A program made the translations under genes and the position numbers. This document shows positions 8,709 through 48,335 of a stretch of DNA of 64,000 nt, in pieces (position 1 is the stretch's first letter; the number at the start of each line of letters is the position of its first letter). The notes beneath the pieces were generated by a model. The model worked only from the letters and a program-made list of their open reading frames with translations, ran no database searches and was not told the DNA's origin. Source of the stretch: Gemmatimonadota bacterium (GTDB lineage Bacteria; Gemmatimonadota; Gemmatimonadetes; Palauibacterales; Palauibacteraceae); contig OZ220691.1 in NCBI GenBank assembly GCA_965116475.1, positions 2,144,001 to 2,208,000 on the forward strand. The letters run 5' to 3'.

Positions 8709-8718
8709 CCGGTCCGTG

Positions 8719-9810
8719 ATGGCGCGTTCCGCGCAGATCCGGTCCAGATTCTGCCCAGGCGCGGCGGCGACGCTCCCCGTGGTGGCGACGCTCGCGGTGG
8801 TGGCGACGCTGCCACTGGTGGCGTGCGGCGCCCCCGGCCCCGGCGGTTCCGACCCGCCGGCGGACGCGGCCACCTGGGACGTTCGCTTTTCCCACGTGCT
8901 CTCGACCGGCTCGGAGTTCCACCTCATGGCGGAGCGCTTCCGCGATCTCATGCTTGAGCGCACGGACGGACGGTTCCGGGTCGTCATCTATCCCTCCGGG
9001 CAGCTCGGCGGCGAGCGCGTGGCCTTCGAGCAGATCCAGGTCGGCGCGGTGCACATGGCGATCACGGGCACGCCGGTGCTCTCGAGCTGGGTGCCGGAGA
9101 CGCAGGTGTTCGATCTCCCCTTCCTGTTCGAGACCCGGGACCACGGGCTCGCGGTGATGAACGGCCCGGCGGGGGACTGGTGGCGCGAACTTCTCCTTGA
9201 GCGCACCGGCGTCCGCTCGCTCGGGTTCCTCGACTACGGGTTCCGCCACGTCTACAACCGACGCCGGCCCGTGGAGACGCCCGGGGATCTCGCCGGCCTC
9301 AAGCTCCGGGTCCTCCAGAACGCGACGTACCTCGCCGCCTATTCCGCGCTGGGCGTGCAGGCGACCCCGATGAACTACGGCGAGGTCTACTCCGCGCTCC
9401 AGCAGGGCGTGATCGACGGCGGGGAGGCGAACGCGGTCGGCTTCGTGAGCAGCCGCCTCCACGAGGTGGCGAAGTTCTACAGCTTCACATCCATCACCTA
9501 CAATCCCATCACCCTTCTCGTGAACGAGCCGTTCTATCGGGGGCTTCCCGCCGAGATCCGGAGAACTGTCGACCGTTCCGCAGCCGAGGCGCTCGCCTAT
9601 CAGAGCGAGGTCGCGCGCCGGATGGAGGCGGAGGCCATCGAGGCGATGCGCCAGGCCGGCGTGGAGATCTCGCGCCCGGATCCGGCGCCGTTCGCCGCGG
9701 CCGTCGGAGCGCGCACCCGGGACGAACTGGCGAATCGGCTGCCGGATGGCGAAGCGCTGATCGCCAGGCTGGTCGCGGAGGCGGAGCGCGCGGCCGCCGA
9801 GGGCAGGTAG
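8719..9810 (+). CDS. dctP: TRAP transporter substrate-binding protein (probable lipoprotein)
   Basis: YPSGQLG, FDLPFLF, GFRH, DLAGLKLRV, EVYSALQQGVIDG. Confidence 0.93.
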   Translation: MARSAQIRSRFCPGAAATLPVVATLAVVATLPLVACGAPGPGGSDPPADAATWDVRFSHVLSTGSEFHLMAERFRDLMLERTDGRFRVVIYPSGQLGGERVAFEQIQVGAVHMAITGTPVLSSWVPETQVFDLPFLFETRDHGLAVMNGPAGDWWRELLLERTGVRSLGFLDYGFRHVYNRRRPVETPGDLAGLKLRVLQNATYLAAYSALGVQATPMNYGEVYSALQQGVIDGGEANAVGFVSSRLHEVAKFYSFTSITYNPITLLVNEPFYRGLPAEIRRTVDRSAAEALAYQSEVARRMEAEAIEAMRQAGVEISRPDPAPFAAAVGARTRDELANRLPDGEALIARLVAEAERAAAEGR

Positions 9811-9836
9811 GCTTCCCGGCCGCCATCAGGAGCGTG

Positions 9837-10991
9837 TCACACCAATAGGTCCTGCCAGAGTTGCCGGGCGAACTCTTCAGCGGGAAGGATGTCGATGCCA
9901 TCGGACGTCCGCCGGGCGCGAGCTTCCAGGCAAACGATGACTCGGCGCCCGATCGAGGGGTGGTCGCGAATGACGCTGCGGAGTCCGCGGAGATGGCGCG
10001 AGCCGATGTTGGCGCTCGCCTTGGCCTCGACCGCCACCTGCATATCACCGACCACGAAGTCGACTTCGGTCCCGCCCGCCAGCCGCCAGTAAGAAAGCTC
10101 GCCATCGAGTTCCCGGTAGCTGAGCCAGGCGGACAACTCGTGGCACACCCAGTTCTCGAAGGCCTTCCCGTACAACTCCGAGCCGGGAGCCACGGAACCG
10201 CGCCGCGCGAGCCGGTTCACGATCCCCACGTCCGCAAAATAGAACTTCGGCGCCTGGATGACCCGCCGCTTTGGGCGCGCGCGATAGGACGGGACCCAGC
10301 GAGCCAGCAGCATGTCCACCAGGACCTGGAAGTAGTTCTTCACCGTTTGCAGCGCGACGCCGCATTCGGCGGCGACGTTCGAGAGGTTGACGATCTCTCC
10401 GTCGCTCAACGAAGCCGCGTCCAGAAAGCGTGAGAAGGCGGGGAGTTGCCGGACAACCCCCTCCGCCGCGACCTCCTGGACGAGGTAGTCGTTGATGTAG
10501 GCGTCCAGGAGACGGCTGGGGCGGGAGGCCTGGTAGATGCGAGGGAGATACCCCGTGTTGAGCAGACGGGTCAGGTCGAAGTCTTCACCGAGCTCGACCG
10601 CGGTGATCCCGAGCAACTCGTAGCGGACGGCCCGCCCCCCGAGGAGATTGGCGGCGCCCCGCTTCACCTTGGTCGCGCTCGATCCGCACAGCGCGAAGCT
10701 GACGCCGCGGTTCTCCATGAGCCAATGGACCTCGTCCAGGAGCGCGGGAACCTTCTGGACTTCGTCGATGACGATCTGGCGGTTCCGGCGATTCCCCTCC
10801 GCTTCGATTTCCTCGCGCAGGAATTCCGGGTTCGTCAGGTAGCGGCGGAACTCGTCGCTCTTCAGCAGGTCGACCCAACGGCCGTCCGGATAGTGCTGCC
10901 GCAAGAGCGTGCTCTTGCCGGCCTGGCGTGGCCCCCACAAGAAGAAAGTCTCCGTGCCGGCGTCCGGCAGGCGCAGTGATCGTTTGAACAT
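9837..10991 (-). CDS. AAA_14 ATPase with DUF4143 / C-terminal PD-(D/E)xK-like domain
   Basis: GPRQAGKS, IDEVQK, LCGSS, PKFYFADVG, FEN, EVDFVV...VEAK. Confidence 0.9.
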   Translation of the reverse strand: MFKRSLRLPDAGTETFFLWGPRQAGKSTLLRQHYPDGRWVDLLKSDEFRRYLTNPEFLREEIEAEGNRRNRQIVIDEVQKVPALLDEVHWLMENRGVSFALCGSSATKVKRGAANLLGGRAVRYELLGITAVELGEDFDLTRLLNTGYLPRIYQASRPSRLLDAYINDYLVQEVAAEGVVRQLPAFSRFLDAASLSDGEIVNLSNVAAECGVALQTVKNYFQVLVDMLLARWVPSYRARPKRRVIQAPKFYFADVGIVNRLARRGSVAPGSELYGKAFENWVCHELSAWLSYRELDGELSYWRLAGGTEVDFVVGDMQVAVEAKASANIGSRHLRGLRSVIRDHPSIGRRVIVCLEARARRTSDGIDILPAEEFARQLWQDLLV

Positions 10992-10995
10992 AGCT

Positions 10996-11019
10996 TGCAA
11001 TTTATCATGATAATTTGCA
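10996..11019. promoter_or_regulatory. Palindromic operator upstream of the ATPase
   Basis: TGCAATTTATCATGATAATTTGCA, near-perfect 24-bp palindrome 4 bp from the ATG. Confidence 0.7.
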
Positions 11020-11095
11020 GTAGCAATGCACGTTGTCAGAGATCTTCCGGTCGCCGGGGGTTACGTATCGGGCCGGATCGCAGGTAGTGTAGAGA

Positions 11096-11569
11096 ATGAA
11101 GCGGAGGCTGCGGGCGCTCGACCGGGTGCTGGTCACGCTGGAGACGTACGCCGTCGGCGTCCTGCTGATCGCGGTCTGCGACGTGGTCCTTCTGCAGGTC
11201 CTGATGCGCTACCTCTTCGCCTATCCGAATCCGTGGAGCGAGGAGGTTTCGCGCTTCTGCTTCATCTGGGTGTCGCTGCTCGGGGCCTCGCTGGCCGTGG
11301 CGCATCGGTCTCACTTCCGGTTCGACCAGGTCACGGGGCGGCTGCCTCCGCGCGCGAGGAAGGCGGTGGAGACGTCCGCGGCGGCGGTCGTCCTGCTGTT
11401 CGCATTCGTCCTCATCGGCACGGGCATCGCCCTCATGGACCTCACCATGGGAGAGCGCTCCGCCGCGCTGAACCTGCCTGTCGCGCTCGTCTATGCCGCG
11501 GCGCCGGTGTCCGGCGTGCTGATGGCGATCCACATGCTTGCGGGTCCGACGGCCGAGGGCGGCGGTTGA
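11096..11569 (+). CDS. dctQ: TRAP transporter small permease
   Basis: QVLMRY...WSEEVSRFCFIW...GA...H; 4 TM segments. Confidence 0.92.
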   Translation: MKRRLRALDRVLVTLETYAVGVLLIAVCDVVLLQVLMRYLFAYPNPWSEEVSRFCFIWVSLLGASLAVAHRSHFRFDQVTGRLPPRARKAVETSAAAVVLLFAFVLIGTGIALMDLTMGERSAALNLPVALVYAAAPVSGVLMAIHMLAGPTAEGGG

Positions 11570-12843
11570 TGGGCGGGCTCCTCCTCGGCGCTTTCGGCTT
11601 GCTCGTGCTGGCAGCGGTGCCGATCGGTTTCGCACTCGCGCTCGCGGCCGTCCTCGCGATCATCGTGGCGGATCTCCCGCTCGTCGTCATCCCGCAGCAG
11701 ATCGTCGCGGGGATGGACTCCTTCCCCATGCTCGCGGTGCCCCTGTTCATCCTCGCCGGCTACCTGATGGATGTCGGAGGGATCAGCCGCCGCCTGGTGA
11801 CGCTGGCCCGCGCGCTCGTGGGCCACCTCCCCGGAGGACTCGGGCAGGTGGTCGTCATGGCCGAGGTGTTCTTCTCGGGCGTGTCGGGCTCGACGTCCGC
11901 GGACGCGGCCGCCGTCGGCGGCATCATGGTGCCGCAGCTGACCGCGAACGGGTACGGCCGGGCGCGCGCCACCGCGATCGTCTCGGCCGCGTGCGGCATG
12001 GGGATCCTCATTCCGCCCGCCATCGTGATGGTCGTCTACGGCGTCATCGGGAACGTCTCCATCGGCGCCCTGTTCGTCGCCTCGATCGTCCCCGCGCTCC
12101 TCATCGCGGCGGGCCTGATGACGCAGATCGGGTGGCAGGCGCGAAGGGAAGGGTGGCCGCGCGGGGAGCGCGCCTCGCTCGCGGAACTCCGCCGCGCGAC
12201 GCTCGACGCCGTGCTCCCGCTCTTCATGATCGTCGTCATCCTGGGGGGCATCCGCTTCGGACTCTTCACCCCCACGGAAGCCGCCGCGGTCGCCGTCGCC
12301 TACGCTCTGCTCCTGGCCGGACTGGTGTACCGATCCCTCACCGTCGCGGAGCTATGGAGCAAGGTCGTCCAGACGGCCGTGGTGTCGGGGATGGTGCTGT
12401 TCGTCGTCGGCGCCGCGCACCTGCTGGGCTGGGTCCTCGCCGTCCTGCAGGTGCCCCAGACGCTGGCGGCATCGGTAGCGGGGATCGGCGGCGGCCCGAT
12501 CGGCTTCATGCTCCTCACGATTCTCATCTTCCTTCCGCTCGGCGCCATCCTCGAGGGCGTGCCCGCGGTCGTCCTGCTGACGCCGATCCTCCTGCCCCTC
12601 GCGACGCAGCTCGGGATCGACCCCGTGCACTACGGCGCCGTGATCGTCGCCACGCAGGGAATCTCGGTGTTCCTGCCACCCGTGGGCGTGAGCCTGCTCG
12701 TCGCCTGCTCCGTGGGAGGTGTCCAGCCGGCCGAGGTCGCGCGCCCGCTCTGGCCCTACCTCGCGCTCATGCTGGCGCTCACAATCGCCATCGCCTTCCT
12801 CCCCGACGTCGTACTCTTCCTGCCGGAACTGCTCGGGTACTGA
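11569..12843 (+). CDS. dctM: TRAP transporter large permease
   Basis: SFPMLAVPLFILAG, SGSTSADAAA, GILIPP, FTPTEAA. Confidence 0.94.
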   Translation: MGGLLLGAFGLLVLAAVPIGFALALAAVLAIIVADLPLVVIPQQIVAGMDSFPMLAVPLFILAGYLMDVGGISRRLVTLARALVGHLPGGLGQVVVMAEVFFSGVSGSTSADAAAVGGIMVPQLTANGYGRARATAIVSAACGMGILIPPAIVMVVYGVIGNVSIGALFVASIVPALLIAAGLMTQIGWQARREGWPRGERASLAELRRATLDAVLPLFMIVVILGGIRFGLFTPTEAAAVAVAYALLLAGLVYRSLTVAELWSKVVQTAVVSGMVLFVVGAAHLLGWVLAVLQVPQTLAASVAGIGGGPIGFMLLTILIFLPLGAILEGVPAVVLLTPILLPLATQLGIDPVHYGAVIVATQGISVFLPPVGVSLLVACSVGGVQPAEVARPLWPYLALMLALTIAIAFLPDVVLFLPELLGY

Positions 12844-12895
12844 AGGGTCGGAGCCACGCATGGTTTCGCGAACGACATGACGATGGGACCTAAAA

Positions 12896-13441
12896 ATGGA
12901 GACACGGGAGTTTGAGATCGGGACGGAGCGGTTGCTGCTGCGGCCGCACAGGCGGGAAGATGTGGACGACATCTTCGAGTTCGCGCGCGATCCGGAGTGG
13001 GGCCGATACCTGACGGCGCCGATGCCCTACCTCAGGGAACACGCGGTGGAGTTCGTGGAGGACCGGATCCGCACGCCGCGGGACCTGTGGCCGGTGTGGG
13101 CGATGGAGTTGGAGGGGAAGGTCGTCGGGGGCATCGGCATCGAGATCGACGTCGAACATGCGACGGGGGCCCTGGGCTACTCGCTCGCGAGGGCGCATTG
13201 GGGCCGGGGCCTGACCGTGGAGGCGGCCCGCGCCGTCGTCGACTGGGCGTTCCGCGAGCGCGGGCTCGCGAAGGTGTACGCGTACGCCGATGCGCGGAAC
13301 ACGGCGTCTCTGAGGGTGATGGAAAAGCTGGGCATGACCCGGGAGGGGCTGCTGCGCGGCCACCGGATGCTGCGGGACGAGCGCGTCGACGAAGTGCACT
13401 ACGGACTCCTCAGGGAAGAGTGGGAGAGGAGCGTCCGCTAA
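12896..13441 (+). CDS. GNAT acetyltransferase, RimJ/RimL family
   Basis: TERLLLRP...LGYSL...WGRGLTVEA...N.ASLRVMEKLGM..EG. Confidence 0.92.
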   Translation: METREFEIGTERLLLRPHRREDVDDIFEFARDPEWGRYLTAPMPYLREHAVEFVEDRIRTPRDLWPVWAMELEGKVVGGIGIEIDVEHATGALGYSLARAHWGRGLTVEAARAVVDWAFRERGLAKVYAYADARNTASLRVMEKLGMTREGLLRGHRMLRDERVDEVHYGLLREEWERSVR

Positions 13442-13448
13442 GGCTCGT

Positions 13449-14315
13449 TCACTCCGACGCGCGCATATCGCCCAGCCCCGTGGCTAGCCGTTCCACGTAT
13501 TCTACTACTGGGTCCCACACTTCCTCGAACTCCCGCTCAGCACCCGGAGGGAGCAGGTGAGCCAGGTTGCGCTGCCAGTCAGCGTGGAACTCGCCCTTGC
13601 GTTCCAGAAGACGGCCCGGGTCGACAACCTCCAATTCGACTTTTCTCGCCTGCAGTTTCCGGGGGAGGTTGACTCGTACCTTCCGCTCATCCACGTGCTC
13701 CAGGAGCGAGAAGATGTCGTACACATCTCTCGATACGGCGTGAAGCCGTTGGCCGAGGACGGCTCGGACCTTCTCGGACATGACCTCTTCCAGGGCATAA
13801 CACGTCAACTGGGGCCGCCCCAGATCGTCGGCGTCGGAGAAAGGATGGAATAGCGAGCGCGACACGGGGCTGAACGTCAGCACTTCGTTCCGCGTGATGT
13901 CGAGGCGAAGGCCGGGTGGAGATCCACCCGAAGCATGGGGTCCGCGCCAGTAGAGCGTGAACTTGAGACTCTCGCGCCCGTACTCGTCGTCAATGACTCT
14001 CAGCCTCGGTGCCCGGGCCGCGAAGTCGATGCCGCTGGCCCCCTGAGCCGCTGCGAATGCCTCGCCGACCGATTTCTCAAACTCCTCCCAACCAAACCAC
14101 TGGGTTGCTGTGAAGTCGAGGTCTTCCGAGAACCGGTAGTGTGGGAAGTAGCACTTCCGCAGGCAGGTCCCACCCTTGAAGACCAGCCGCCTGGCCAGGA
14201 AAGGGTGTCCCGCGAGACCTCGGAGGGCCCATCCGAGCGCGTAATCCAACTCCACGATGCGAGGCTCGACACCCGCCGTTGCCGCGCGTCGGCGGATCTC
14301 CGCGTCCTGAATCAT
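13449..14315 (-). CDS. abiEii: AbiEii/AbiGii nucleotidyltransferase toxin (type IV TA)
   Basis: ELDY, FKGGTCLRKCYF..YRFSEDLDF, EKVRA, RDVYD. Confidence 0.92.
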   Translation of the reverse strand: MIQDAEIRRRAATAGVEPRIVELDYALGWALRGLAGHPFLARRLVFKGGTCLRKCYFPHYRFSEDLDFTATQWFGWEEFEKSVGEAFAAAQGASGIDFAARAPRLRVIDDEYGRESLKFTLYWRGPHASGGSPPGLRLDITRNEVLTFSPVSRSLFHPFSDADDLGRPQLTCYALEEVMSEKVRAVLGQRLHAVSRDVYDIFSLLEHVDERKVRVNLPRKLQARKVELEVVDPGRLLERKGEFHADWQRNLAHLLPPGAEREFEEVWDPVVEYVERLATGLGDMRASE

Positions 14316-15139
14316 GGCTGCTCGCGGAGCCCTTCCTCCGGGAGATTGATTTCGACGCGCCAGCGAGTGACGATCCGATGGGGCTTCCGTGGAGTGGACG
14401 GATCGAGTCTGCTGATGCCAGCCGTGAGAAGATCCAACCATTCGTGCAGCATCGCCCGCTTCGGAGCATGGGTTAGCTCAACGCTCTCGACCAGAAACCC
14501 GAGCCGCTTCACGACCGCGCCGGAACCAAAGCGGCGCAGGTAATTCGTCATGCGGTCCCACTTGAAGTCGCCATCTCCTGCGAGTAGTGCCTCCGTGACC
14601 TGGGCCACTCCTCCGCTTAGCTCGGGCCTGTCGAGGCAATCGATGATCGTTTTTTCCCGATCCGTGACCTTGACTTGGGATTCTCCGGCACGGTATGCGT
14701 GGCAACCGAAGAACTTCCGAGGCTTCACCCGGACGATCCGAAACCGCATCCCGAGAACCTGCAGGGTGCGGCGCTCCTTGCGGGCGGTCGTCTGCACGTA
14801 CGTAACGCGGGGGATCTGGTCGGTGAGGTTCCAGTAGTTGAGGGCAGACCAGTAGCTGACCATGGCGTGACTCACCAGGTGTCCGGCAACGACGTGGGCG
14901 TCCTCGGTCCAGGTGCGGTCGGGGCCGGCTTCGAGTGGAACGATGAGGTACTTCCCCTTCTCAAGGCGTTCCAGCCAGCCCTTGTCGACGAGTCGTGCCA
15001 GCGCATCCCTGGTCGCCCTGCCTTCGCCAAGCACATCGTACGCATCCTTTGTTGCGAAGATCTGCTTCCCGCTCGCGGCCAAGGTGGTGAGAAATGACGC
15101 TTCGGCGTCGCTGAGGCTTATTGTATTACGATACGCCAT
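14312..15139 (-). CDS. abiEi: AbiEi family antitoxin / transcriptional regulator
   Basis: N-terminal wHTH (RLVDKGWLERLEKGKY), SYWSALNYWNLTDQIP, TDREKTIIDC; ATGA overlap with the toxin. Confidence 0.9.
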   Translation of the reverse strand: MAYRNTISLSDAEASFLTTLAASGKQIFATKDAYDVLGEGRATRDALARLVDKGWLERLEKGKYLIVPLEAGPDRTWTEDAHVVAGHLVSHAMVSYWSALNYWNLTDQIPRVTYVQTTARKERRTLQVLGMRFRIVRVKPRKFFGCHAYRAGESQVKVTDREKTIIDCLDRPELSGGVAQVTEALLAGDGDFKWDRMTNYLRRFGSGAVVKRLGFLVESVELTHAPKRAMLHEWLDLLTAGISRLDPSTPRKPHRIVTRWRVEINLPEEGLREQP

Positions 15140-15150
15140 TACCGCTCCCA

Positions 15151-15169
15151 GATACGTCAATCACGTATC
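15151..15169. promoter_or_regulatory. Probable AbiEi operator
   Basis: GATACGT-N5-ACGTATC inverted repeat just upstream of the RBS. Confidence 0.6.
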
Positions 15170-15249
15170 GAAATATAATCGACGCGAATGGATTCCGCTA
15201 ACGCGGATTCCTGTACGGGGGATGGCTCCGGACGCCGGCGTTGGGCCCG

Positions 15250-15966
15250 TCAGTACTTGATGTCGGTTCGGCCGACCGTCATTCCGATGTTGCCGACCCG
15301 CCGGCCCGTCGTGTAGTGCTCGCCGCTTCCGGCGGTCATCCCGAAGAAGTCCACGGCGGGCACGATGAGGCGGCCGGCGTCGTCGACCGCGCCCTCGATG
15401 GCGGTCGTCGCCACGACCTCCGCGAGGAAGATCTTCCGTTCGGGCGGCACCTCGAGCGAGTCGAAGATCCGGCACTCGCAGTGGATCGGGGATTCCTCCA
15501 CCGTGGGCGCATCCACGACCGTCGCCGCGCCGCGCGTCAGCCCCGAGAGTTCGAACTTGTCGGCCACGCGTCCGGAGTTCATGTCGACGGTGTCGAATGC
15601 CTCGACCATCGACGCGAGCGGCACGTTCAGCACGAACTCGTCGTGCATCTCCAGGAGTTCCCTCGCCTGGTGCTCGAAGGCCGCGCTCACGCCGATCTGG
15701 GGCGGGTCGCCGCTCACGACGAACGTCCACAGCACCGAGATCTCGTCCGGGTCGCCGGGTCGGCCATTCACGGTGAGCAGGATCGCCGGGACGGGCGGCA
15801 GCATCGGCCCCGGCTCCGCCAGCGAGCGGCGGGGCCCGGTGAGCGGCGCGGGCGGCCTACCCCCGCCCACCGGCAGCCCCTCGTCGGGTGCACAGCCCCA
15901 AACGGCGGCGACCGCGGCGGCCGCCGAGCCGCTCCCCAAAAACCGCCTCCTCGACCAGCCCGACAT
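15250..15966 (-). CDS. Flavin reductase-like FMN-binding protein with Tat/lipoprotein signal
   Basis: SRRRFL signal, VWGC; EFVLNVP, SGRVADKFELSGLT, ESPIHCEC, IFLAEVV. Confidence 0.85.
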   Translation of the reverse strand: MSGWSRRRFLGSGSAAAAVAAVWGCAPDEGLPVGGGRPPAPLTGPRRSLAEPGPMLPPVPAILLTVNGRPGDPDEISVLWTFVVSGDPPQIGVSAAFEHQARELLEMHDEFVLNVPLASMVEAFDTVDMNSGRVADKFELSGLTRGAATVVDAPTVEESPIHCECRIFDSLEVPPERKIFLAEVVATTAIEGAVDDAGRLIVPAVDFFGMTAGSGEHYTTGRRVGNIGMTVGRTDIKY

Positions 15967-15987
15967 GGATGACCTTTCTCTCGGCGT

Positions 15988-16701
15988 TCAGTAGCCCTCT
16001 TCGACGTTCAGATTGTGAATGATCTCTCCATCTCGCCAGAACGTCAGGCCGAGAAACGGCTCATCGTGGTATGGCATGGAGCCCTCAGGTCCCTTGCCAA
16101 GGAACATGAAGTCTCCCCCTTCGTTCAGGTAGACACCGACCATACCCTCATCGTACGCGATCAGGGAAACGGCCTCCCCACCGTCCGAATCGAGGCCCAA
16201 AGCGACGTAGTCGCTGTCCTCTCGGCTGAGCACGCCGAAACCGCCCCGTTCGAATCCGTAGCGATCATGGACCACCAGACCCGAAGACGGCGCGATGCGT
16301 TTGCCCACGTGCGGATCGGGCGTCTCTTCACCAAGGACAAGCCGATCAAAACCATCCTCGTTGAGGATCACGAGCCCGCTGGTCCCGTGGTTATAGTCCT
16401 GGTAGGAGTCCATATACTCATCGATGTCTGGATGTTGAGGCCCCCACAGCGCACGCAGTCGAGCCGTATCGGTGCGAACGCGGTTGGTCGCCTCGGGAAT
16501 TGGTGCGCCGAGGAGGATCCGTTCGCGTCCGGCCTCGTCCTCGATGATCAGCCCGCGCGCCCTCAGGACGCCCTCAGTCGCTGTTCCGCCCCTGACGAAC
16601 AGGATGACGAGTGCAACGCTGGCCAGGGCGGCGTAGGCCTGAAGCCAACGGATCGTGCGCCTCACCTGCTCCATTTCCGCTTTCACGAACAACTCCTTCA
16701 T
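15988..16701 (-). CDS. Hypothetical membrane-anchored beta-rich protein
   Basis: One N-terminal TM, ARGLIIEDEAGRERILLG; lower GC; start may be the second Met. Confidence 0.7.
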   Translation of the reverse strand: MKELFVKAEMEQVRRTIRWLQAYAALASVALVILFVRGGTATEGVLRARGLIIEDEAGRERILLGAPIPEATNRVRTDTARLRALWGPQHPDIDEYMDSYQDYNHGTSGLVILNEDGFDRLVLGEETPDPHVGKRIAPSSGLVVHDRYGFERGGFGVLSREDSDYVALGLDSDGGEAVSLIAYDEGMVGVYLNEGGDFMFLGKGPEGSMPYHDEPFLGLTFWRDGEIIHNLNVEEGY

Positions 16702-16825
16702 GCATGGGTTGACTCACATCGAGAGACTCGCTGAAGGCTGGACAACCGAGAGACGACAGGAGGTTGCAGCTTTCGCCGGTGCCGTTCATTGGCTTTCCGA
16801 ACCGACGGCCGCGTTCCCGGAGTGT

Positions 16826-17965
16826 TCAATAAATGCCGGGGATGATGCGGTATTTCACGCGCGCCTGGTACTCGGCCCACTTCTCGGGGCCGTATTTCTC
16901 GGCGCAGAACTTGTCGTCGAAGCGCTGCCGGAAAATGAACAGTCCGACGATGAAGACGAAGTAGGTCCAGGCCCAGGGGTTGGCGAAGTAGCCGAACACG
17001 AGGGCGATCGAGAGGGCGAAGCAGCCCTCGCCCATGTAGTTGAAGTGGCGCGCGACGCCCCACAGGCCGCTGCACAGGATCTTGCGGTCGCCGGCCTCGA
17101 TGTACTCGGGTGCGATGAGGCCGAGGAACTGGCGCTCGGGCCAGCGCTTGAAGGTGTACTTCTGCATGTTGGCGCCGCGCGTGATGCCCCACCCGACCAG
17201 GAACAGCGCCGGGGCGCCGATCAACCACACCTGCCTCCACGGCGCCGCGAAGCCGGGGTCCGGGTACACGGCCAGACCCCACAGCGGAAGGATGTAGAGC
17301 CACCCGTACACCAGGATCCCGCCCCAGATCATCTTGAAGCCGAGCTTCTCGTGGATCACGTCGTAGGTGTAGAGCTGGACGCGCTCGAAGACGAAGTAGT
17401 CGAAGACGTAGAAGGCGAGGAACGCGGCATAGAGGAAGACGCCGGGGTTGGAGTCCGCGCCGAAGAGTCCGTAGTGGTACGCGGCGCCGGAGAGCGCGTT
17501 CAGCGACAGCATGGTCCCGCCGACGACGTACAGGAACATCTTCACGTCGAAGCGGTCGCCGAAGAACGACATCTCGAGGACGCGCCCTTCCCACAAAGCG
17601 GCGAGCGGCCGCCCCACCTTGCCGCGCGACCCGCCGAACACGGCGAGGAGGGCGAAAACGAGACAGAGGACGGTGCCGCCGGCGACCTGGTAGACGGTGG
17701 ACCGGTAGAACCAGTCCCGCGGCATGCCGGTCAGTTCGAGCGCCCACACGAGTTCCGCGAGCACGAACACGAGGAGGCCGTTCAGCCGGTAACTGCGGGG
17801 TTCGCCGGTCTCCGCGTCGACGACGTAGCCGGGCACCCGACGACCCGGCAGGACGAGTTGTACCACGAAGAATGCGGCGCAGATCGCCAGCGGCGTGAGG
17901 AAGCCGGCCAGCGCTTCGGTCCCGGACAGCTCGAACAGGTGGCCGATGCCGAGCCATTCAATCAT
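16826..17965 (-). CDS. ERG4/ERG24/DHCR7-family sterol reductase
   Basis: YRLNG, DVIHEKLGF, SGLWGVARHFNYMGE, CAEKYG..W.EY...VKYRIIPGIY. Confidence 0.9.
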   Translation of the reverse strand: MIEWLGIGHLFELSGTEALAGFLTPLAICAAFFVVQLVLPGRRVPGYVVDAETGEPRSYRLNGLLVFVLAELVWALELTGMPRDWFYRSTVYQVAGGTVLCLVFALLAVFGGSRGKVGRPLAALWEGRVLEMSFFGDRFDVKMFLYVVGGTMLSLNALSGAAYHYGLFGADSNPGVFLYAAFLAFYVFDYFVFERVQLYTYDVIHEKLGFKMIWGGILVYGWLYILPLWGLAVYPDPGFAAPWRQVWLIGAPALFLVGWGITRGANMQKYTFKRWPERQFLGLIAPEYIEAGDRKILCSGLWGVARHFNYMGEGCFALSIALVFGYFANPWAWTYFVFIVGLFIFRQRFDDKFCAEKYGPEKWAEYQARVKYRIIPGIY

Positions 17966-18417
17966 CGAAAAAGATCCTCTCCGGGGTGCGCGGCCGCCTG
18001 CCTGAGCCAGCTCACGAGGAGGCCCTCGTCCGGCTCGTCGCCTTCGTGGATGTGGAAGTAACGCACATGCTCGTGCTTCGAGTCCACCGGCGGCACGGGT
18101 CTGAGCGAGGCGCCATTGAGGAAGGTCACCTTGATGTACCGCGTGAAACAATGGAACGAGAGGAACCAGCCCTGGTCCTCGATGCCGTAGAAGGGAGAGT
18201 TCCACCGGACAGCCTTGCGCGCGCCGGGCACGACGCGCTCGACCAGCCCGTCGAGGTAGCGGCCGACCCCACGTTTCCAGCCCGGCATGGCCGCGATGTA
18301 GGCCTGGACGGGCGCGTCTCCATCCCCCTTCGGAATCCGGGGATTGCCTCCGGAGAGGAGTCTCGGTTTCGCGGCCGCGGCGCCGGCGGCGCCCTCCGGT
18401 GCGTTCTCCGGGATCAG
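17962..18417 (-). CDS. DUF1801 (YdhG-like) domain protein
   Basis: LLSGGNPRIPKGDGDAPVQAYIAAMPGWKR...KAVRWNSPFYG; the conserved part extends 5' of ATG 18288, implying a CTG start. Confidence 0.8.
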   Translation of the reverse strand: MIPENAPEGAAGAAAAKPRLLSGGNPRIPKGDGDAPVQAYIAAMPGWKRGVGRYLDGLVERVVPGARKAVRWNSPFYGIEDQGWFLSFHCFTRYIKVTFLNGASLRPVPPVDSKHEHVRYFHIHEGDEPDEGLLVSWLRQAAAHPGEDLFR

Positions 18418-21804: not shown

Positions 21805-21925
21805 GGCTCCGGACCCTCCGCGGCCGCGGCGAATCCAGGGAGGCCCGTTACACGTACGCCAGGCTGCGGATCGGAATGGCAGCTTACAGCCAGGAAGCGG
21901 TGGCACACCGGATGGAGGTGGACAC

Positions 21926-22441
21926 GTGTCGGAACTGTCGGGCTGGCTTCGGGCACTGGGCGTAGACGGCCTTCAGAGCATCTTGACGAAAATCGACGAG
22001 CGAGGAGGGGAACCGTTCGCGGAAGAACTCGACGCGGATGGAGACGTGCGCGTGGAAGGACAGCGCACGAGCGATGAACTGATGGCGAAGTTCGTCGCCG
22101 CCGGGGACGAAGGGCTCTCGACGCGGATCTTCCAGGCGACGGCGGACCGACCGGAGGGGTATCCGGATGACCTGCCGTTTCTCTCACTGACGACAATGAT
22201 GACTTGCCTTGCGTCGGTAGGTGTTCGTCAACCCGGAGTGCGGGTCGCCATTTGGACCGGCGAACGGAATGCAGTCGAAACCCTGAAGGCAGTAGTGACC
22301 GAGAGCGCGAAGATTGGCTGGGCAGTGGCATCGCAAAGCGGTCTCGTGACGCGCATGGTCTCGGGAGACCGTGAGCGAATAGTGTCGTATCTGCCGGCGG
22401 GAGCGGGGACGCCTGCCGTCATGCTCTTCGAGCGGACCTAG
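21926..22441 (+). CDS. Hypothetical protein
   Basis: GGAGG RBS plus GTG; lower GC; no recognisable motif. Confidence 0.55.
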   Translation: MSELSGWLRALGVDGLQSILTKIDERGGEPFAEELDADGDVRVEGQRTSDELMAKFVAAGDEGLSTRIFQATADRPEGYPDDLPFLSLTTMMTCLASVGVRQPGVRVAIWTGERNAVETLKAVVTESAKIGWAVASQSGLVTRMVSGDRERIVSYLPAGAGTPAVMLFERT

Positions 22442-22468
22442 GCTCTGCTGCGAGGTCCAACCACACGG

Positions 22469-22510
22469 GAGCCTCTCCAACACGCCGGACGCCTTGCTCC
22501 GTGGGATCAT
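22469..22510 (-). pseudogene. Possible N-terminal stub of a third AAA+DUF4143 ATPase
   Basis: MIPRSKASGVLERL resembles the family N-terminus and is preceded by a TGCA-armed palindrome; no Walker A follows. Confidence 0.4.
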
Positions 22511-22518
22511 TCGCGTCG

Positions 22519-22561
22519 TAACCATGCAAATCCAACATCTGATGTAAGATCTGCATGGTTA
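22519..22561. promoter_or_regulatory. 43-bp imperfect palindrome (operator-like)
   Basis: TAACCATGCA...ACATC-T-GATGT...TGCATGGTTA. Confidence 0.65.
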
Positions 22562-22627
22562 TTTCACTCCGGCACGCAAGGAGATCGAGGCCCCTGAGTC
22601 GAGGCCGCAGACGCGGGACTGATCCGG

Positions 22628-23659
22628 TCAGGCTCCCGAGCGCGGCGGCTTGCGGGCCAGGAAGAAGAACATCGGAGTGAAGATCCCGGCCTTGCCACCC
22701 GCGACCAGTGCGTCCGCTGTCCGGTTCAACATTGAGCTCACTGCGGCGGTACCCTCCGGAAACGCTCTCAACCTCTCGCCGACTGTCAGCACCAGATTCG
22801 TCAGCGCGCGGCCAACGGGTGTCCGCGGAATGCTCCTGAGGTTGAGGTCGCGACCCTGCAGAGCGCGGTACCAGGGCGTTGTCGGGTCCGCCGCGGGGGC
22901 GCGATCATGGGATTCGACGAGTTCGAATCCCGCCGTGCGCAGCGCGATGTCTATCTCCGAAGAGCGCGCGACATCCGGCAGCGCATCGCCCGCCACGATG
23001 TCCTGCTTGATCCGCACGTGTTCGGCGTCCCGTGGATCGAAGTCCTCGGTGAGGCACCAGTCGTAGCCCGCGATGCAGGCCCCCCGACGCAGGACGCGGA
23101 AGATCTCCCGGAACGCCGCCGTCTTGTCCGGTGCGTGCGGCATGGACTCGATGGCGATGGCGGCATCGTATCGGTCCTCGCTCTCGGGTATCTGCATGTA
23201 GTCGCCGTGGATAAAGCGGCACAGAGATTCGACATCCCGGGTGTGTTCCTTCGCGCGCTCAATCTGGTAGGCGTTGTTGTTGATGCCTACGAAGCTCGCC
23301 CCGGAATAGCGGGCCAGGGCGCCCATCGGTCCCCCGACTCCGCATCCGACATCGAGCACCCGCATCCCCGGTGCAAGGGACAGGTGATCGGCGAGAAAGT
23401 GCTGATGCCTGAGCAGCGACGTTTTGAAGCTCTCGCCCCGGCGCCGGGGAGCGAAGTGAAAGGACCGCCCCCAGCCGAACTCGTAGAAATCCGTGACCAG
23501 GTCGTAGTAGTGATTGACGAACTCCCGATAACGCTCTCGTCTGCCCTCCACACCGGCATCGTGGATGCCGGTGTATTGCTCGACCACCGACTTCACTTCG
23601 TCCGGGGCGAGGTCGCCGAGAGATCGAGCGTCCGATTGCTTTGCGGGTGTAGGGGTCAC
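22628..23659 (-). CDS. Sterol C24-methyltransferase (ERG6/SMT1-like)
   Basis: YYDLVTDFYEFGWGRSFHFA, LDVGCGVGGP, IESMPHAP, GIFTPMFFFLARKP; start GTG 23659 or ATG 23740. Confidence 0.92.
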   Translation of the reverse strand: MTPTPAKQSDARSLGDLAPDEVKSVVEQYTGIHDAGVEGRRERYREFVNHYYDLVTDFYEFGWGRSFHFAPRRRGESFKTSLLRHQHFLADHLSLAPGMRVLDVGCGVGGPMGALARYSGASFVGINNNAYQIERAKEHTRDVESLCRFIHGDYMQIPESEDRYDAAIAIESMPHAPDKTAAFREIFRVLRRGACIAGYDWCLTEDFDPRDAEHVRIKQDIVAGDALPDVARSSEIDIALRTAGFELVESHDRAPAADPTTPWYRALQGRDLNLRSIPRTPVGRALTNLVLTVGERLRAFPEGTAAVSSMLNRTADALVAGGKAGIFTPMFFFLARKPPRSGA

Positions 23660-23803
23660 CCAATTCGTCCCGTTGAGTTCACAGGGTTGCCCTGAGAGTC
23701 GCGCGGGAAGGAACACCGATGCGCCGACGTCCGCAAGCATCGTTGCCGTTCCTGCGGTTAGATTGCTGTCGAATCTGCCGCTGGACCGATTGAAGGAGGG
23801 CTC

Positions 23804-27927: not shown

Positions 27928-28229
27928 TCCGGGATGTCGCGCCGGCTGTGCAAAACGCGCCAGACATCGATCTGATCGTGGCCTGTCATGTAGAAGACAA
28001 CGTGGGGGTAGCCCTTGAGCGGCCACGAGCGCAATCCGGGCAAGTTCACCTCGTGACCGTGCCGGGGTGAACCCGAGCGCGGGTTGTCGGCGATGTGCCG
28101 GAAGGCTTCCTGGAGCGCGTCAATGAAGCCAAGCGCGACCTGCGATCCGACTTCCTCCAGGTAGTGAGCGGTCGCCTGATCCACGTCCTGCCGGGCAGCC
28201 GCCCTCAGGACCACGGAAGCCGGCGTCAC
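27909..28229 (-). CDS. parE: ParE/RelE toxin
   Basis: AARQDV...GSPRH...LPGLRSWPLKGYPHVVFY...VWRVLHSRRD. Confidence 0.9.
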   Translation of the reverse strand: MTPASVVLRAAARQDVDQATAHYLEEVGSQVALGFIDALQEAFRHIADNPRSGSPRHGHEVNLPGLRSWPLKGYPHVVFYMTGHDQIDVWRVLHSRRDIPEWLRRS

Positions 28230-28465
28230 TCCGTTGCGTGTCTGCGAATCCGGGCGCGTAGCGCGTCGAAGTACGTCGTATCGGCGGTGACAGCGGGATC
28301 GGACTCACCGCCCTCCAACAGCAGATTTCGAAGGTGCTGCCGATCCTGATCTCGGCGGATCAGTTCACGGATGTACGCGCTGCAACTGCCGTAACCGCGA
28401 CCGACGACCTGCTCGTCGACAAACGACTTCAGAGGAGCGGGGAGCGAGATGTTCATGGTACTCAT
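28226..28465 (-). CDS. parD: ParD family RHH antitoxin
   Basis: MSTMNISLP..LKSFVDEQV..RGYGS.S.YIRELIRRD. Confidence 0.92.
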   Translation of the reverse strand: MSTMNISLPAPLKSFVDEQVVGRGYGSCSAYIRELIRRDQDRQHLRNLLLEGGESDPAVTADTTYFDALRARIRRHATE

Positions 28466-28549
28466 GTCCAAAGCGTAGAGCGTTTGGCAAGAAATGGCAA
28501 ACACATTCGGCATGCCATCCCCTCTCCCCGTTGCCGGTCCGAAGTGTCA

Positions 28550-28570
28550 TAGCTAGACTTAGTCTAGCTA
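28550..28570. promoter_or_regulatory. Operator of the second Phd-VapC module
   Basis: TAGCTAGACT-T-AGTCTAGCTA, perfect 10-bp inverted repeat; TGGCAA direct repeats at 28485-28500 probably serve parD. Confidence 0.7.
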
Positions 28571-28606
28571 GATTCTGCGCAAGTGGGCGAGGAGAGGACG
28601 TGCCGC

Positions 28607-28858
28607 ATGAGGGTGAACATGCACGAAGCGAAGTCACAGCTTTCCCGTCTGGCCAGGCTGGCCCGAGAAGGGGAAGAGGTCGTGATCTGCAACTCGGGAC
28701 AACCGTGGGTGCGCCTGATGCCGTACCGGGAACCCGTTGAACCCCGACAGCCGGGCGGCCTCGAGGGCCAGATCGTGATCGGTCCGGACTTCGACGACGA
28801 GGACGAAGAGATCATTGCGGCGTTCGAAAACTCCAGGATCTTCCCGGACGCCGACTGA
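28607..28858 (+). CDS. Phd/YefM antitoxin
   Basis: VNMHEAKSQLSRL....GEEVVI...G.P. Confidence 0.92.
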   Translation: MRVNMHEAKSQLSRLARLAREGEEVVICNSGQPWVRLMPYREPVEPRQPGGLEGQIVIGPDFDDEDEEIIAAFENSRIFPDAD

Positions 28859-28860
28859 CG

Positions 28861-29238
28861 ATGCGGCTGCTGCTCGACACACACGCGTTTCTCTGGTGGG
28901 TGTCCGACTTTCGTCGGATCGCCGAGTCGGCCCGGAAGGCGATCGCGGACCCTGAAAGCGAGGTGTTCGTGAGCGCGGTCTCCGGGTGGGAGATCGCGAT
29001 CAAGAAGGCCAAGGGTCGACTTGTCGCACCGGACAACCTGGCGGCCGTGGTAGACGAAAAGCAGTTCGCACACCTGCCGCTGACGTTCGACCAGGCCGAG
29101 CGAGCCGCGACCCTGCCGCCGCACCACCGCGATCCGTTCGACCGAATGCTCATCGCTCAAGCGCGGGCCGAAGGGCTCATCCTGGTCACGCGCGATTCGC
29201 GCATTCCGCTCTACGACGTGCCCACGCTGCGGGCCTAG
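28861..29238 (+). CDS. vapC: PIN-domain VapC toxin
   Basis: LLLDTHAFLWW...SAVSGWEIAIK...HRDPFDRMLIAQA...LVTRD. Confidence 0.94.
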   Translation: MRLLLDTHAFLWWVSDFRRIAESARKAIADPESEVFVSAVSGWEIAIKKAKGRLVAPDNLAAVVDEKQFAHLPLTFDQAERAATLPPHHRDPFDRMLIAQARAEGLILVTRDSRIPLYDVPTLRA

Positions 29239-46893: not shown

Positions 46894-46998
46894 GGCACCC
46901 GCTGCCTGTCGTCCGTCCTTCATCCATTAGATCGGACACACGGCGCCACGGTCACGTTGTAGAGGGCGCCGCACGACGAGGAGAAGCGGCCCGCGGCG

Positions 46999-48219
46999 TC
47001 AGGACCAGAGTGTCGAAATCGGTGCGGCGGCCAGGCGGGGGCCGAAGGGGGTCGTGTGGTCGTGGTCGTGAAGAACCAGGCCCTGCGCGAAGCGATCGCC
47101 ACAGGCGGCCTTGAGGCGCTCAAGACCGGCGAAATCGCGACGTGAGACCGTGGCGGATGCCTTGACCTCGATCCCGACCACTCTGCCGTGCCCATCTTCC
47201 AGGACGACATCGACCTCGTTGCCCTGCTTGTCCCGGAAGTGAGAGAACCTGCAGGGATCGTCGATCCAGCCGGCGAGCTTCAGGAGCTCGCCGAAAACGA
47301 AAGTCTCCAGCAACGGCCCGAGACGCGTTCGATCCCGACCGAGGAGTTCCGGCGATTGCTGCCCCCAGGACGCGAGCAGCCCCGAGTCCAGGAAGTGCAG
47401 CTTCGGGGTCTTCAGGAGCCGCTTCAAGGCGTTCGAATACCAGGGCTGCAGCGTCCGAACGAGGAACAGGTCTTCGAGCACGCCGACGTACTTGCGGATG
47501 GTGACGTGGTTCATGCCCAGCGCCGAGCCGAAGCCAGAGTAGTTCACGAGTCGCCCGGAATGTTCGGCCAGAACGCGCAGGAGTTTCGGCATGGACTGCA
47601 GTTGATCGACGCGGGCGACGTCGCGGACATCCCGTTGCAGGATCGCGTCGACGTAGTTCAGGTGCCAGCGGCGGCGACGACGCCAGGTCGAGCGAGTCAG
47701 CGCCTCGGGATACCCTCCGGCGAGAACGATATCCAGGAGATCGGCACCCACGACGGGGTTGGCGGCGACAGGAGCGTCGCCCGCGAATGCGCGCTCCAGG
47801 AATCCGGGTCGGGTTCCTCGAAGCTCCGCCTGAGCGAGGGGCAGGAGACGAATGGTCTCCATGCGACCCGCGAGGGAATCCGCGACGCGGGGCAGCGTCA
47901 TCAGGTTCGCGGATCCGGTGAGCAGGAAACGTCCCGGCCGAGGATCGGTGTCTACGGCGGTCTTGATCGCAAGCAGGAGTTCCGGGACGCGCTGGATCTC
48001 ATCGATTACGGCTCGGTCGAGGCCACGCACGAAGCCGGTCGGATCGGTCGCGGCGGCATTGAGAGTGATGCTGTCGTCGAGTGTGAAGAAAGGGATTTCC
48101 GTGCGCGCGATCTGCTGCGCCAGCGTGGTTTTGCCGGATTGGCGGGGACCGCATAGCAACACGACTCGCGTATCCGCGAGTGCCTCCACGATTCGGTCTT
48201 CAACGAAACGAGGATACAG
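46999..48219 (-). CDS. AAA_14 ATPase with DUF4143 / PD-(D/E)xK-like domain
   Basis: GPRQSGKT, IDEIQR, LTGSA, SLAGR, GGYP, PKLHFLDSG, EVDVV...IEVK; the conserved YPRF extends to a CTG/ATT start behind GGAGG. Confidence 0.9.
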   Translation of the reverse strand: MYPRFVEDRIVEALADTRVVLLCGPRQSGKTTLAQQIARTEIPFFTLDDSITLNAAATDPTGFVRGLDRAVIDEIQRVPELLLAIKTAVDTDPRPGRFLLTGSANLMTLPRVADSLAGRMETIRLLPLAQAELRGTRPGFLERAFAGDAPVAANPVVGADLLDIVLAGGYPEALTRSTWRRRRRWHLNYVDAILQRDVRDVARVDQLQSMPKLLRVLAEHSGRLVNYSGFGSALGMNHVTIRKYVGVLEDLFLVRTLQPWYSNALKRLLKTPKLHFLDSGLLASWGQQSPELLGRDRTRLGPLLETFVFGELLKLAGWIDDPCRFSHFRDKQGNEVDVVLEDGHGRVVGIEVKASATVSRRDFAGLERLKAACGDRFAQGLVLHDHDHTTPFGPRLAAAPISTLWS

Positions 48220-48253
48220 AATTTCAGTCCTCCCGCGCTAACGTCGAAATCCC

Positions 48254-48332
48254 TGACCGATTGAAAATTTGTCGATGACTAATTGAAAGTATGATCGCGA
48301 CCAATTGAAAATCAAGCTGTGTCCATCTGAAA
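48254..48332. repeat. Four 13-bp direct repeats with 22-bp period
   Basis: TGACCGATTGAAA (48254), TGACTAATTGAAA (48276), CGACCAATTGAAA (48298), degenerate TGTCCATCTGAAA (48320). Confidence 0.8.
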
Positions 48333-48335
48333 AGA

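Follow-up and report, generated by a model that had tools for sequence, protein, structure and literature searches.

Do short direct repeats at the ends of host genes record the arrival of defence and toxin-antitoxin (TA) genes in a bacterial core genome, or is their position a coincidence? The question is raised by a 64,000-nucleotide stretch of contig OZ220691.1 (assembly GCA_965116475.1, positions 2,144,001 to 2,208,000), called the window below, which comes from the sponge-associated Ca. Palauibacter group of the Gemmatimonadota, has 68.5% GC and encodes a DctM with 94-96% protein identity to those of metagenome-assembled genomes (MAGs) of four named Palauibacter species. Two unrelated modules in it, a DUF4143-containing ATPase gene and an AbiEi/AbiEii pair, are each flanked by an exact 8-bp direct repeat, and a third module, with another DUF4143 ATPase, by a 7-bp repeat. 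The original prediction, made from the sequence alone, read these repeats as duplications left by a recurrent insertion process that favours gene termini. The cassettes are instead a case of ordinary accessory-gene turnover with a few notable details. It is rather probable that they are old, autoregulated cassettes sitting in integration hotspots and turned over by deletion and allele exchange, and the exact match of the repeats seems to be a coincidence peculiar to this lineage and not a scar left by a new kind of mobile element. A link between repeats and insertion is not supported.

Module 1 lies within a TRAP transporter operon, where it separates dctP, the gene of the solute-binding subunit (8716..9810, plus strand; Pfam DctP, E 7.7e-73), from dctQ (11096-11569) and dctM (11569-12843), both on the plus strand and matched by Pfam DctQ and DctM. 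Its one gene, convergent with dctP, encodes a 384-aa protein with AAA_14 and DUF4143 domains (9837..10991, minus strand). Module 2 stands between a GNAT acetyltransferase gene (12896..13441, plus strand; Pfam Acetyltransf_3) and a flavin reductase-like gene (15250..15966, minus strand; Pfam Flavin_Reduct). The strings themselves were confirmed: the left GCAGGTAG copy (9803-9810) is formed by the last 8 nt of dctP including its TAG stop and the right one (11080-11087) lies 8 nt 5' of the dctQ start, while the left TCCGCTAA copy (13434-13441) is formed by the last 8 nt of the GNAT gene including its TAA stop and the right one occupies 15194-15201. For module 3 (46963-48344) the claim stood in part, since AGGGCGC is present at 46963 and 48338 and only one of its bases overlaps the stop codon of the adjoining MATE gene (TCA, 48336-48338). 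Neither the modules nor the rest of the window contain a recombinase, transposase or integrase detectable with Pfam, and a repeat search of the module regions found no terminal inverted repeats linking module ends, both in agreement with what had been noted at the outset.

The evidence that carries our answer comes from 80 loci retrieved by one DctM search, each with 10 kb on either side where the contig permits and designated here by L numbers; these comparators cover modules 1 and 2, and none covers module 3. That the modules are accessory insertions at gene ends which leave the neighbouring open reading frames (ORFs) intact was borne out, as some relatives lack them and others hold different cargo in the same spacers. 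The dctP/dctQ junction is found in three states: with the ATPase at the same site and at 93-95% amino acid identity (L004, L046, L044, L022 and L003), with a mere remnant made of the operator and about 12 codons (L011, L016 and L069), or with nothing (L002, L001, L072, L063 and L065). Integration hotspots are variable spacers between core genes in which defence and TA genes collect, and the spacer between the GNAT and flavin reductase genes is of this kind, holding AbiE, HicAB or nothing. AbiE is present in L002 and L003 (its assignment in these two and in L069 and L023 is based on AbiEi hits, blastn and the alignment), HicA/HicB take its place in L008 and L011, and module 2 is absent from L004, L001, L044, L072, L063 and L016. 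AbiE is also found in other contexts in L069 and L023, in the latter within an island that has a DUF5615/PIN_10 gene and a DDE transposase and is without GNAT or flavin reductase. A third hotspot follows a TauD-like gene (window 21806-23737), and its cargo varies likewise among relatives: one DUF4143 ATPase in L003 (8952-10141) and L016 (16328-18776), another in L046 (14938-17285) and L004, a remnant of the ATPase operator alone in L072 (14870-14960), nothing in L001 and L002, and a sterol-methyltransferase-like gene with an ORF of unknown nature in the window. Genes unrelated to defence turn over in the same way, the GNAT gene being missing from 13 more distant loci (a gap from 12843 to 15228 of the window).

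Further to the right, a lineage-specific 0.87-kb insertion (window 15961-16825) between the start of the flavin reductase gene and the stop codon of the next gene is missing from 12 related loci, and its junctions share just a 6-mer, GCGTTC. It contains an ORF of 237 aa (15988-16701) whose N-terminus reads as hydrophobic, which has no match in Pfam, PADLOC or NCBIfam and whose homologues in L058 and L059 are 57% identical.

Losses of the ATPase gene have a common geometry at three sites, where the deletion extends from the neighbour's stop codon into the 5' region of the ATPase gene and spares the operator. Besides the one in L072, such remnants occupy 9290-9480 in L011, 9250-9440 in L016 and 9350-9440 in L069, and further ones lie at about 12311-12335 in L034 and about 14854-14870 in L076. 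In module 1 the operator is a palindrome, TGCAATTTATCAT/ATGATAATTTGCA, at the ATPase start (10996..11019), which has promoter-like hexamers on both strands, those on the minus strand at 11039-11010 and those on the plus strand, facing dctQ, at 10985-11014. Judging from this arrangement, dctQM may depend on the plus-strand site, which would explain why the remnant is retained after the ATPase has been lost.

The order of gains and losses was followed on a maximum-likelihood tree of dctQM DNA containing 42 of 81 sequences, those with a high-scoring segment pair of more than 1500 nt at an identity of at least 83.5%. With WIN standing for the window, the tree reads (L001,(WIN,(L002,(L072,(L003,L004))))), with starred support, and for neither cassette does it allow one gain with no later loss. 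The empty-site spacer of L004 is the same as that of L072, although AbiE is present in L003, the sister of L004, where its left junction is the one seen in L002, a pattern of empty and occupied sites that would best be explained by deletion together with the exchange of whole alleles through the conserved flanks. The dctQM sequences also include some from MAGs with other phylum labels, 83-90% identical to the window, namely L012, L017, L018, L024, L032, L034, L050 and L074-L077 (labelled Acidobacteriota) and L020 and L048 (labelled Gammaproteobacteria). These nest among the Gemmatimonadota, which points to binning errors or else to a TRAP operon that has moved between bacteria living in sponges.

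If the repeats were target duplications, they should be at their most perfect at the time of insertion and decay thereafter, and the orthologous loci show the opposite polarity. The right copies are kept in occupied orthologues (GCAGGTAG in L003 and L004, TCCGCTAA in L002 and L003, TCCGCCAA in L069), and it is the gene ends that diverge: dctP ends in GCCCGTAG in L004 and the GNAT gene in AACGCTAA in L002 and L003, with the result that left and right match at 6 of 8 positions. Among orthologues in general, dctP ends in GCCGGTAG, GCCCGTAG or CTCATAG. The GNAT ends are more telling, as the ten relatives' ends all differ from that of the window (AGCGTCCGCTAA): they read GACGAACGCTAA in L002 and L003, GACGAAGGCTGA in L001 and L016, GAGGAACGCTGA in L044, GACGAACGCCAG in L004, AACGAAGGCTAG in L072, AACGCACGCTGA in L008 and L011, and GACGGTAACTGA in L063, and in eight of them the last codon, which varies, comes after GA(C/G)GAA(C/G)GC. 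Relative to these ten, the GNAT end of the window is derived, and its 8/8 match would have arisen after the insertion, in the lineage of the window. Empty sites were expected to retain a single copy of the repeat. GNAT ends without an adjacent AbiE (...GGCTGA or ...CGCTGA) carry no TCCGCTAA, and the dctP end of the empty site in L063, GCCGGTAG, agrees with GCAGGTAG at 7 of 8 positions, which is inconclusive when taken alone.

The right copy at AbiE also has a simpler origin. On the abiE coding strand this 8-mer reads TTAGCGGA and includes TTAGCG (15201-15196), which stands 18 nt upstream of TATATT (15177-15172), the ATG following 32 nt further on, so that a putative minus-strand promoter is contained in 15172..15201. 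The -35-like box is conserved in the midst of a variable spacer, as TTAGCG in L002 and L003, as TTGGCG in L069 and, in the alignment, as TTGGAG in L023. Since it is present even in the unrelated context of L023, it belongs to the AbiE cassette, and we infer that the right copy is cassette sequence, most simply its -35 box. No flanking repeats were found around AbiE in its other contexts in L023 and L069.

A younger event can be seen in the comparison of L019 with L021, whose flanks are 95% identical. Here 15 bp have given way to a DUF4143 ATPase cassette of 1.28 kb, and no target duplication accompanies it. The same comparison provides a positive control, because an IS3-family insertion element with HTH_Tnp_1 and rve ORFs (L021 6928-8468), inserted at the start codon of a gene, has CATAATG on both sides with a 7-bp overlap where L019 has a single CACAATG; duplications are therefore detectable in this pair of loci. 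At a larger scale, 282 calls of indels of at least 400 bp were reduced to 98 non-redundant ones and searched for direct repeats within 30 bp of both BLAST breakpoints. There was no excess of flanking repeats over these 98 indels: repeats of at least 8 bp were found at 5 of 98 as against 9.6% of random window pairs, and of at least 7 bp at 25 of 98 as against 28%.

Nor do the repeats of the window stand far above chance. Direct-repeat families of at least 8 nt number 17-27 in each module region of 1.4-1.9 kb; on the plus strand of the window GCAGGTAG occurs 5 times, AGGGCGC 16 times and TCCGCTAA twice; and when 60-bp windows of these genomes are paired at random, about 10% of the pairs have an 8-mer in common. 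For 51 gene calls, we counted how often the terminal 8 nt are found again in the spacer that follows one or two genes further on; there were two such cases, both of them the reported ones. Control 8-mers ending 1-150 nt upstream of the stop gave a mean of 0.79 such cases, with two or more at 19% of offsets, and a control of looser geometry gave two or more at 10 of 60 offsets. As the words of the offset control are GC-richer than words that contain a stop codon, an order-1 Markov model of the spacers was used as well, from which the expectation is 0.275 and the probability of two or more cases 0.03. The evidence that the pair of repeats exceeds chance in the window is thus weak, with p between about 0.03 and 0.19. 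In a genome of 68% GC, an exact flanking repeat of 8 bp carries little evidential weight.

Similarity beyond the 8-mers was absent, the 30 nt before the two copies giving p = 0.62 for module 1 and 0.95 for module 2 in local alignment. Two further candidates were considered and set aside. Longer, decayed duplications of gene 3' ends looked convincing by eye at all three modules but found no support when local alignments were compared with those of random windows (for the 30 nt that precede the repeats, p 0.03 at the third module; for the 40-nt ends, p 0.135, 0.042 and 0.084). The second candidate was a common end motif, ACGTATCG...GGAT, which the original prediction had seen near the right ends of the first two modules. 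ACGTATCG is indeed present at 11063 and 15163; in module 1 it is not kept in the orthologues, where L004 has ACGGATCC and L003 ACGTACCC, and the copy in module 2 falls within the operator of abiE. The three modules have no shared junction motif, with 16 common 7-mers against a random mean of 21.5.

We can now put together the reading that we prefer. Cassette 1 is a PDC-S01-type ATPase gene between dctP and dctQ, and cassette 2 an AbiEi/AbiEii pair between the GNAT and flavin reductase genes, each equipped with an operator and a putative promoter of its own. Both insertions would be old, because they are found at orthologous positions in species that differ by about 10% at the DNA level, and the cassettes would first have entered by illegitimate recombination. 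The spacers act as integration hotspots whose cargo differs by species. The patchy distribution of the cassettes would have arisen from repeated deletion, often sparing the ATPase operator and 5' end, and from homologous recombination between the conserved genes on either side, by which an occupied allele is swapped for an empty one or the reverse. Placement at gene ends would follow because insertions that break an ORF are lost by selection, and also because of tight trimming, with only 7 and 26 bp left between the neighbour's stop codon and that of the cassette. As for the repeats, the right copy at AbiE would be the -35-like box of the cassette, and the left copies would be gene ends unlike those of the orthologues, the GNAT end being clearly derived.

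Several observations weigh against this reading. The comparators all belong to different species, diverged by at least 5-10%, and old junctions are blurred at such distances. The comparison contains just one young DUF4143 indel, and the indel test missed the window's own two modules because their BLAST breakpoints are more than 30 bp from the right copies, so that its sensitivity is limited and it excludes only a strong general signal. The low significance of the repeats in the window rests on treating their observation as post hoc; for a single gene, the chance expectation that its last 8-mer recurs in the approximately 100 spacer positions beyond the cassette is only 0.0006 and 0.0007 at the two sites. 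At site 1 the consensus dctP end, which is GCCGGTAG in L046, L011, L069 and L063, differs from the right copy at just one of 8 positions, which makes this site less clear than the GNAT site and fits an old duplication there. The abiE promoter is putative, being read from an alignment, and a consensus promoter scanner called none, since the boxes score 8/12 against a threshold of 9/12. Finally, the GNAT stop codon is TAA in all three loci where AbiE is adjacent (the window, L002 and L003) and in none of the eight others, where it is TGA (L001, L016, L044, L008, L011 and, with a divergent end, L063), TAG (L072) or not found at that place (L004); this association is unexplained.

The first rival is the model originally proposed, in which elements of a transposase-free type insert at the ends of genes and duplicate 7-8 bp of the target, with mobilisation in trans or microhomology behind the process. 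It accounts at once for exact 8/8 repeats that end at the stop codon in two modules and for their low per-gene expectation; at site 1 it can call on the 7/8 consensus dctP end facing a right copy conserved in L003 and L004; and relatives do possess transposases, of the IS3 family and of the DDE type, for which action in trans is conceivable. It has to contend with the lack of terminal inverted repeats and of a shared end motif in the modules, the 6/8 match in orthologues together with the derived GNAT end of the window, an AbiE right copy that is cassette sequence and is not matched by a flanking repeat in L023 and L069, the young DUF4143 indel without duplication and the 98 indels without repeat excess, and the window-level p of 0.03-0.19. 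Taken together, these findings make the duplication of gene ends by a recurrent insertion process unlikely.

Slightly less likely still is a Campbell-type integration of cassette circles at a core of 6-8 bp (CGCTAA, in the promoter region of the cassette) by a host tyrosine recombinase acting in trans, comparable to Xer-dependent modules or to recombinase-less SCC-like and CIME elements; the core, stop codon included, would then stand on either side. CGCTAA is found on both sides in all three GNAT-AbiE loci, the right copy is cassette sequence, as would be expected of an attP core, the use of TAA at AbiE-adjacent GNAT ends finds a place in this model, and cassette losses inside the clade appear clean. 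Against it stand the lack of conserved inverted arms, the window's 9-bp arms around TAAC being missing in L002 and L003, and the lack of a common junction motif across the three modules, a search that a weak site could escape and in which no dif consensus of the phylum was used; L023 and L069 have no second core, nothing equivalent is seen at the young DUF4143 indel, and 6 bp will quite often agree by coincidence where about 10 positions are available. In a variant that we regard as equally doubtful, the cores would be homogenised by rounds of excision and reintegration, which would explain why the window's gene ends shifted towards identity with the right copies. The least probable alternative is integration into the 3' end of a gene with a replacement gene end, such as the e14 and phage 21 prophages bring into icd, in which the right copy would be the displaced original end of a longer, decayed duplication: window positions 9813-9840, directly behind the dctP stop codon, do resemble the 3' coding end of dctP in L072 (score 23, p about 0.01), and likewise in L022, and over its final 12 nt the GNAT gene of the window departs from the commonest end at 4 positions, but of 18 comparisons made with gene ends at the empty sites of L072, L063 and L065 just 2, not independent of one another, had p at or below 0.05, the 30 nt before the 8-mer copies are dissimilar, the right flank compared with native gene ends gives p 0.13-0.80, and the window has no integrase.

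An AT-rich operator had been predicted for each module, and all three were found: the palindrome of module 1, the inverted arms of module 2 and, in module 3, three TTTCAAT repeats upstream of the ATPase gene (approximately 48255-48315). Both ATPases of the window are full-length matches to the PADLOC model PDC-S01 (E 1.2e-52 for module 1 and E 1.4e-169, over 46999-48189, for module 3) and unite an N-terminal AAA_14 ATPase domain with a C-terminal DUF4143 domain in one protein, the architecture of that family. PDC-S01, which corresponds to COG1373, has the rank of a mere candidate in PADLOC-DB, as a single-gene phage-defence system. The part of PMC3424549 that lists the PD-(D/E)XK families includes DUF4143, with its function unassigned there, and a passage of a 2026 preprint names a 'DUF4143-related' restriction-endonuclease fold as an effector domain; the literature that we found for DUF4143 states no function.

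The ATPase of module 3 (46999..48222, minus strand), which adjoins the end of the MATE gene, has an unusual beginning. No ATG, GTG or TTG lies between an in-frame TAG and the GTG at 48189, the alignment to the PADLOC model opens with residue 2 of the protein against model position 22, and a GGGAGG box followed by ATT and CTG stands upstream of that GTG. From this layout, translation probably starts at a non-canonical ATT or CTG about 10 codons upstream of GTG 48189. The family of the module 1 ATPase is very large and conserved, with 7998 of 8000 scored candidates at E of 1e-30 or below, and many matches at 70-75% identity belong to MAGs that bear the labels Deltaproteobacteria, Myxococcota, Acidimicrobiia and Gammaproteobacteria. 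This spread over phylum labels fits frequent transfer and is silent on the mechanism of insertion.

Cassette 2 has the architecture of an AbiE type IV TA system. AbiEi, the antitoxin and repressor (14312..15139, minus strand; Pfam AbiEi_4 and AbiEi_1; PADLOC AbiEi, E 5.9e-75), is followed by AbiEii, the nucleotidyltransferase toxin of 288 aa (13449..14315, minus strand; Pfam AbiEii; PADLOC AbiEii, E 1.6e-61), whose ATG overlaps the AbiEi stop codon as ATGA. Its operator (15120..15179) is made of inverted arms at 15120-15140 and 15159-15179 with the motifs CGATACG/CGTATCG, which are conserved across relatives, and is situated between the -10-like box and the start codon, an arrangement consistent with putative autoregulation of abiE through inverted repeats in its promoter.

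Elsewhere in the window, a TA cluster upstream of the alanine racemase gene comprises a ParD-like antitoxin (28226-28513, minus strand), a Phd-family antitoxin (28583-28858) and a PIN toxin (28861-29238), with a perfect 10-nt palindrome at 28550-28570, and no repeat of a neighbouring gene end flanks this cluster (28226-29238). The window also encodes an ERG4/ERG24-family sterol reductase-like protein (16826-18205) and a methyltransferase with a Sterol_MT_C domain (22628-23740). Genes of these two sterol-related kinds are unusual in bacteria.

Had the repeats been insertion scars, they would have pointed to a new, transposase-free route by which defence and TA genes spread through core genomes, and the evidence points otherwise. 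The value of the locus lies in being a worked example of how single-gene cargo turns over in the hotspots of uncultured, sponge-associated Gemmatimonadota, in whose genomes ATPase cassettes of the DUF4143 (PDC-S01) type are common and have time and again been worn down until only the operator is left. Among known systems, three kinds of element built without a mobility gene of their own offer partial parallels. With non-autonomous transposable cassettes, such as miniature inverted-repeat transposable elements (MITEs) with passenger genes and mobile insertion cassettes, the modules share transposase-free cargo and short flanking direct repeats, but they lack terminal inverted repeats and, at other sites, copies with common ends, and their repeats are not kept in orthologues. 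Xer-dependent pdif modules, cis-mobilisable elements (CIMEs) and ccr-less cassettes resembling the staphylococcal cassette chromosome (SCC) at the 3' end of rlmH are likewise TA or accessory modules without a recombinase, sited at a gene 3' end with a short direct repeat that includes the last bases of the gene, whereas here there is no conserved recombinase-binding site, there are no tandem arrays and the repeat amounts to only 6 bp in orthologues. Integron gene cassettes and clusters of attC sites lacking integron-integrases (CALINs) are similar in their compact single-gene or TA cassettes, but the modules of the window have no attC-like imperfect palindrome at the cassette end and no integrase, and they have their own promoters. 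At the level of the genes, the abiE pair resembles described AbiE systems in having both domains, the ATGA overlap and inverted repeats between promoter-like boxes and the start codon, and shows nothing unusual; the ATPases agree with PDC-S01 in their full-length match and domain order and differ by the strong palindromic or repeated operator at their start and by their recurrent decay to remnants. There remain the integration hotspots, with which these spacers share conserved flanks, occupied, empty and differently occupied states, a cargo of defence and TA genes and no need of a mobility gene; they differ in that the cargo consists of single genes or gene pairs and, at 1.3-1.8 kb, falls far short of the size of a typical island, and that genes unrelated to defence, the GNAT gene and ORF 15988-16701, behave alike.

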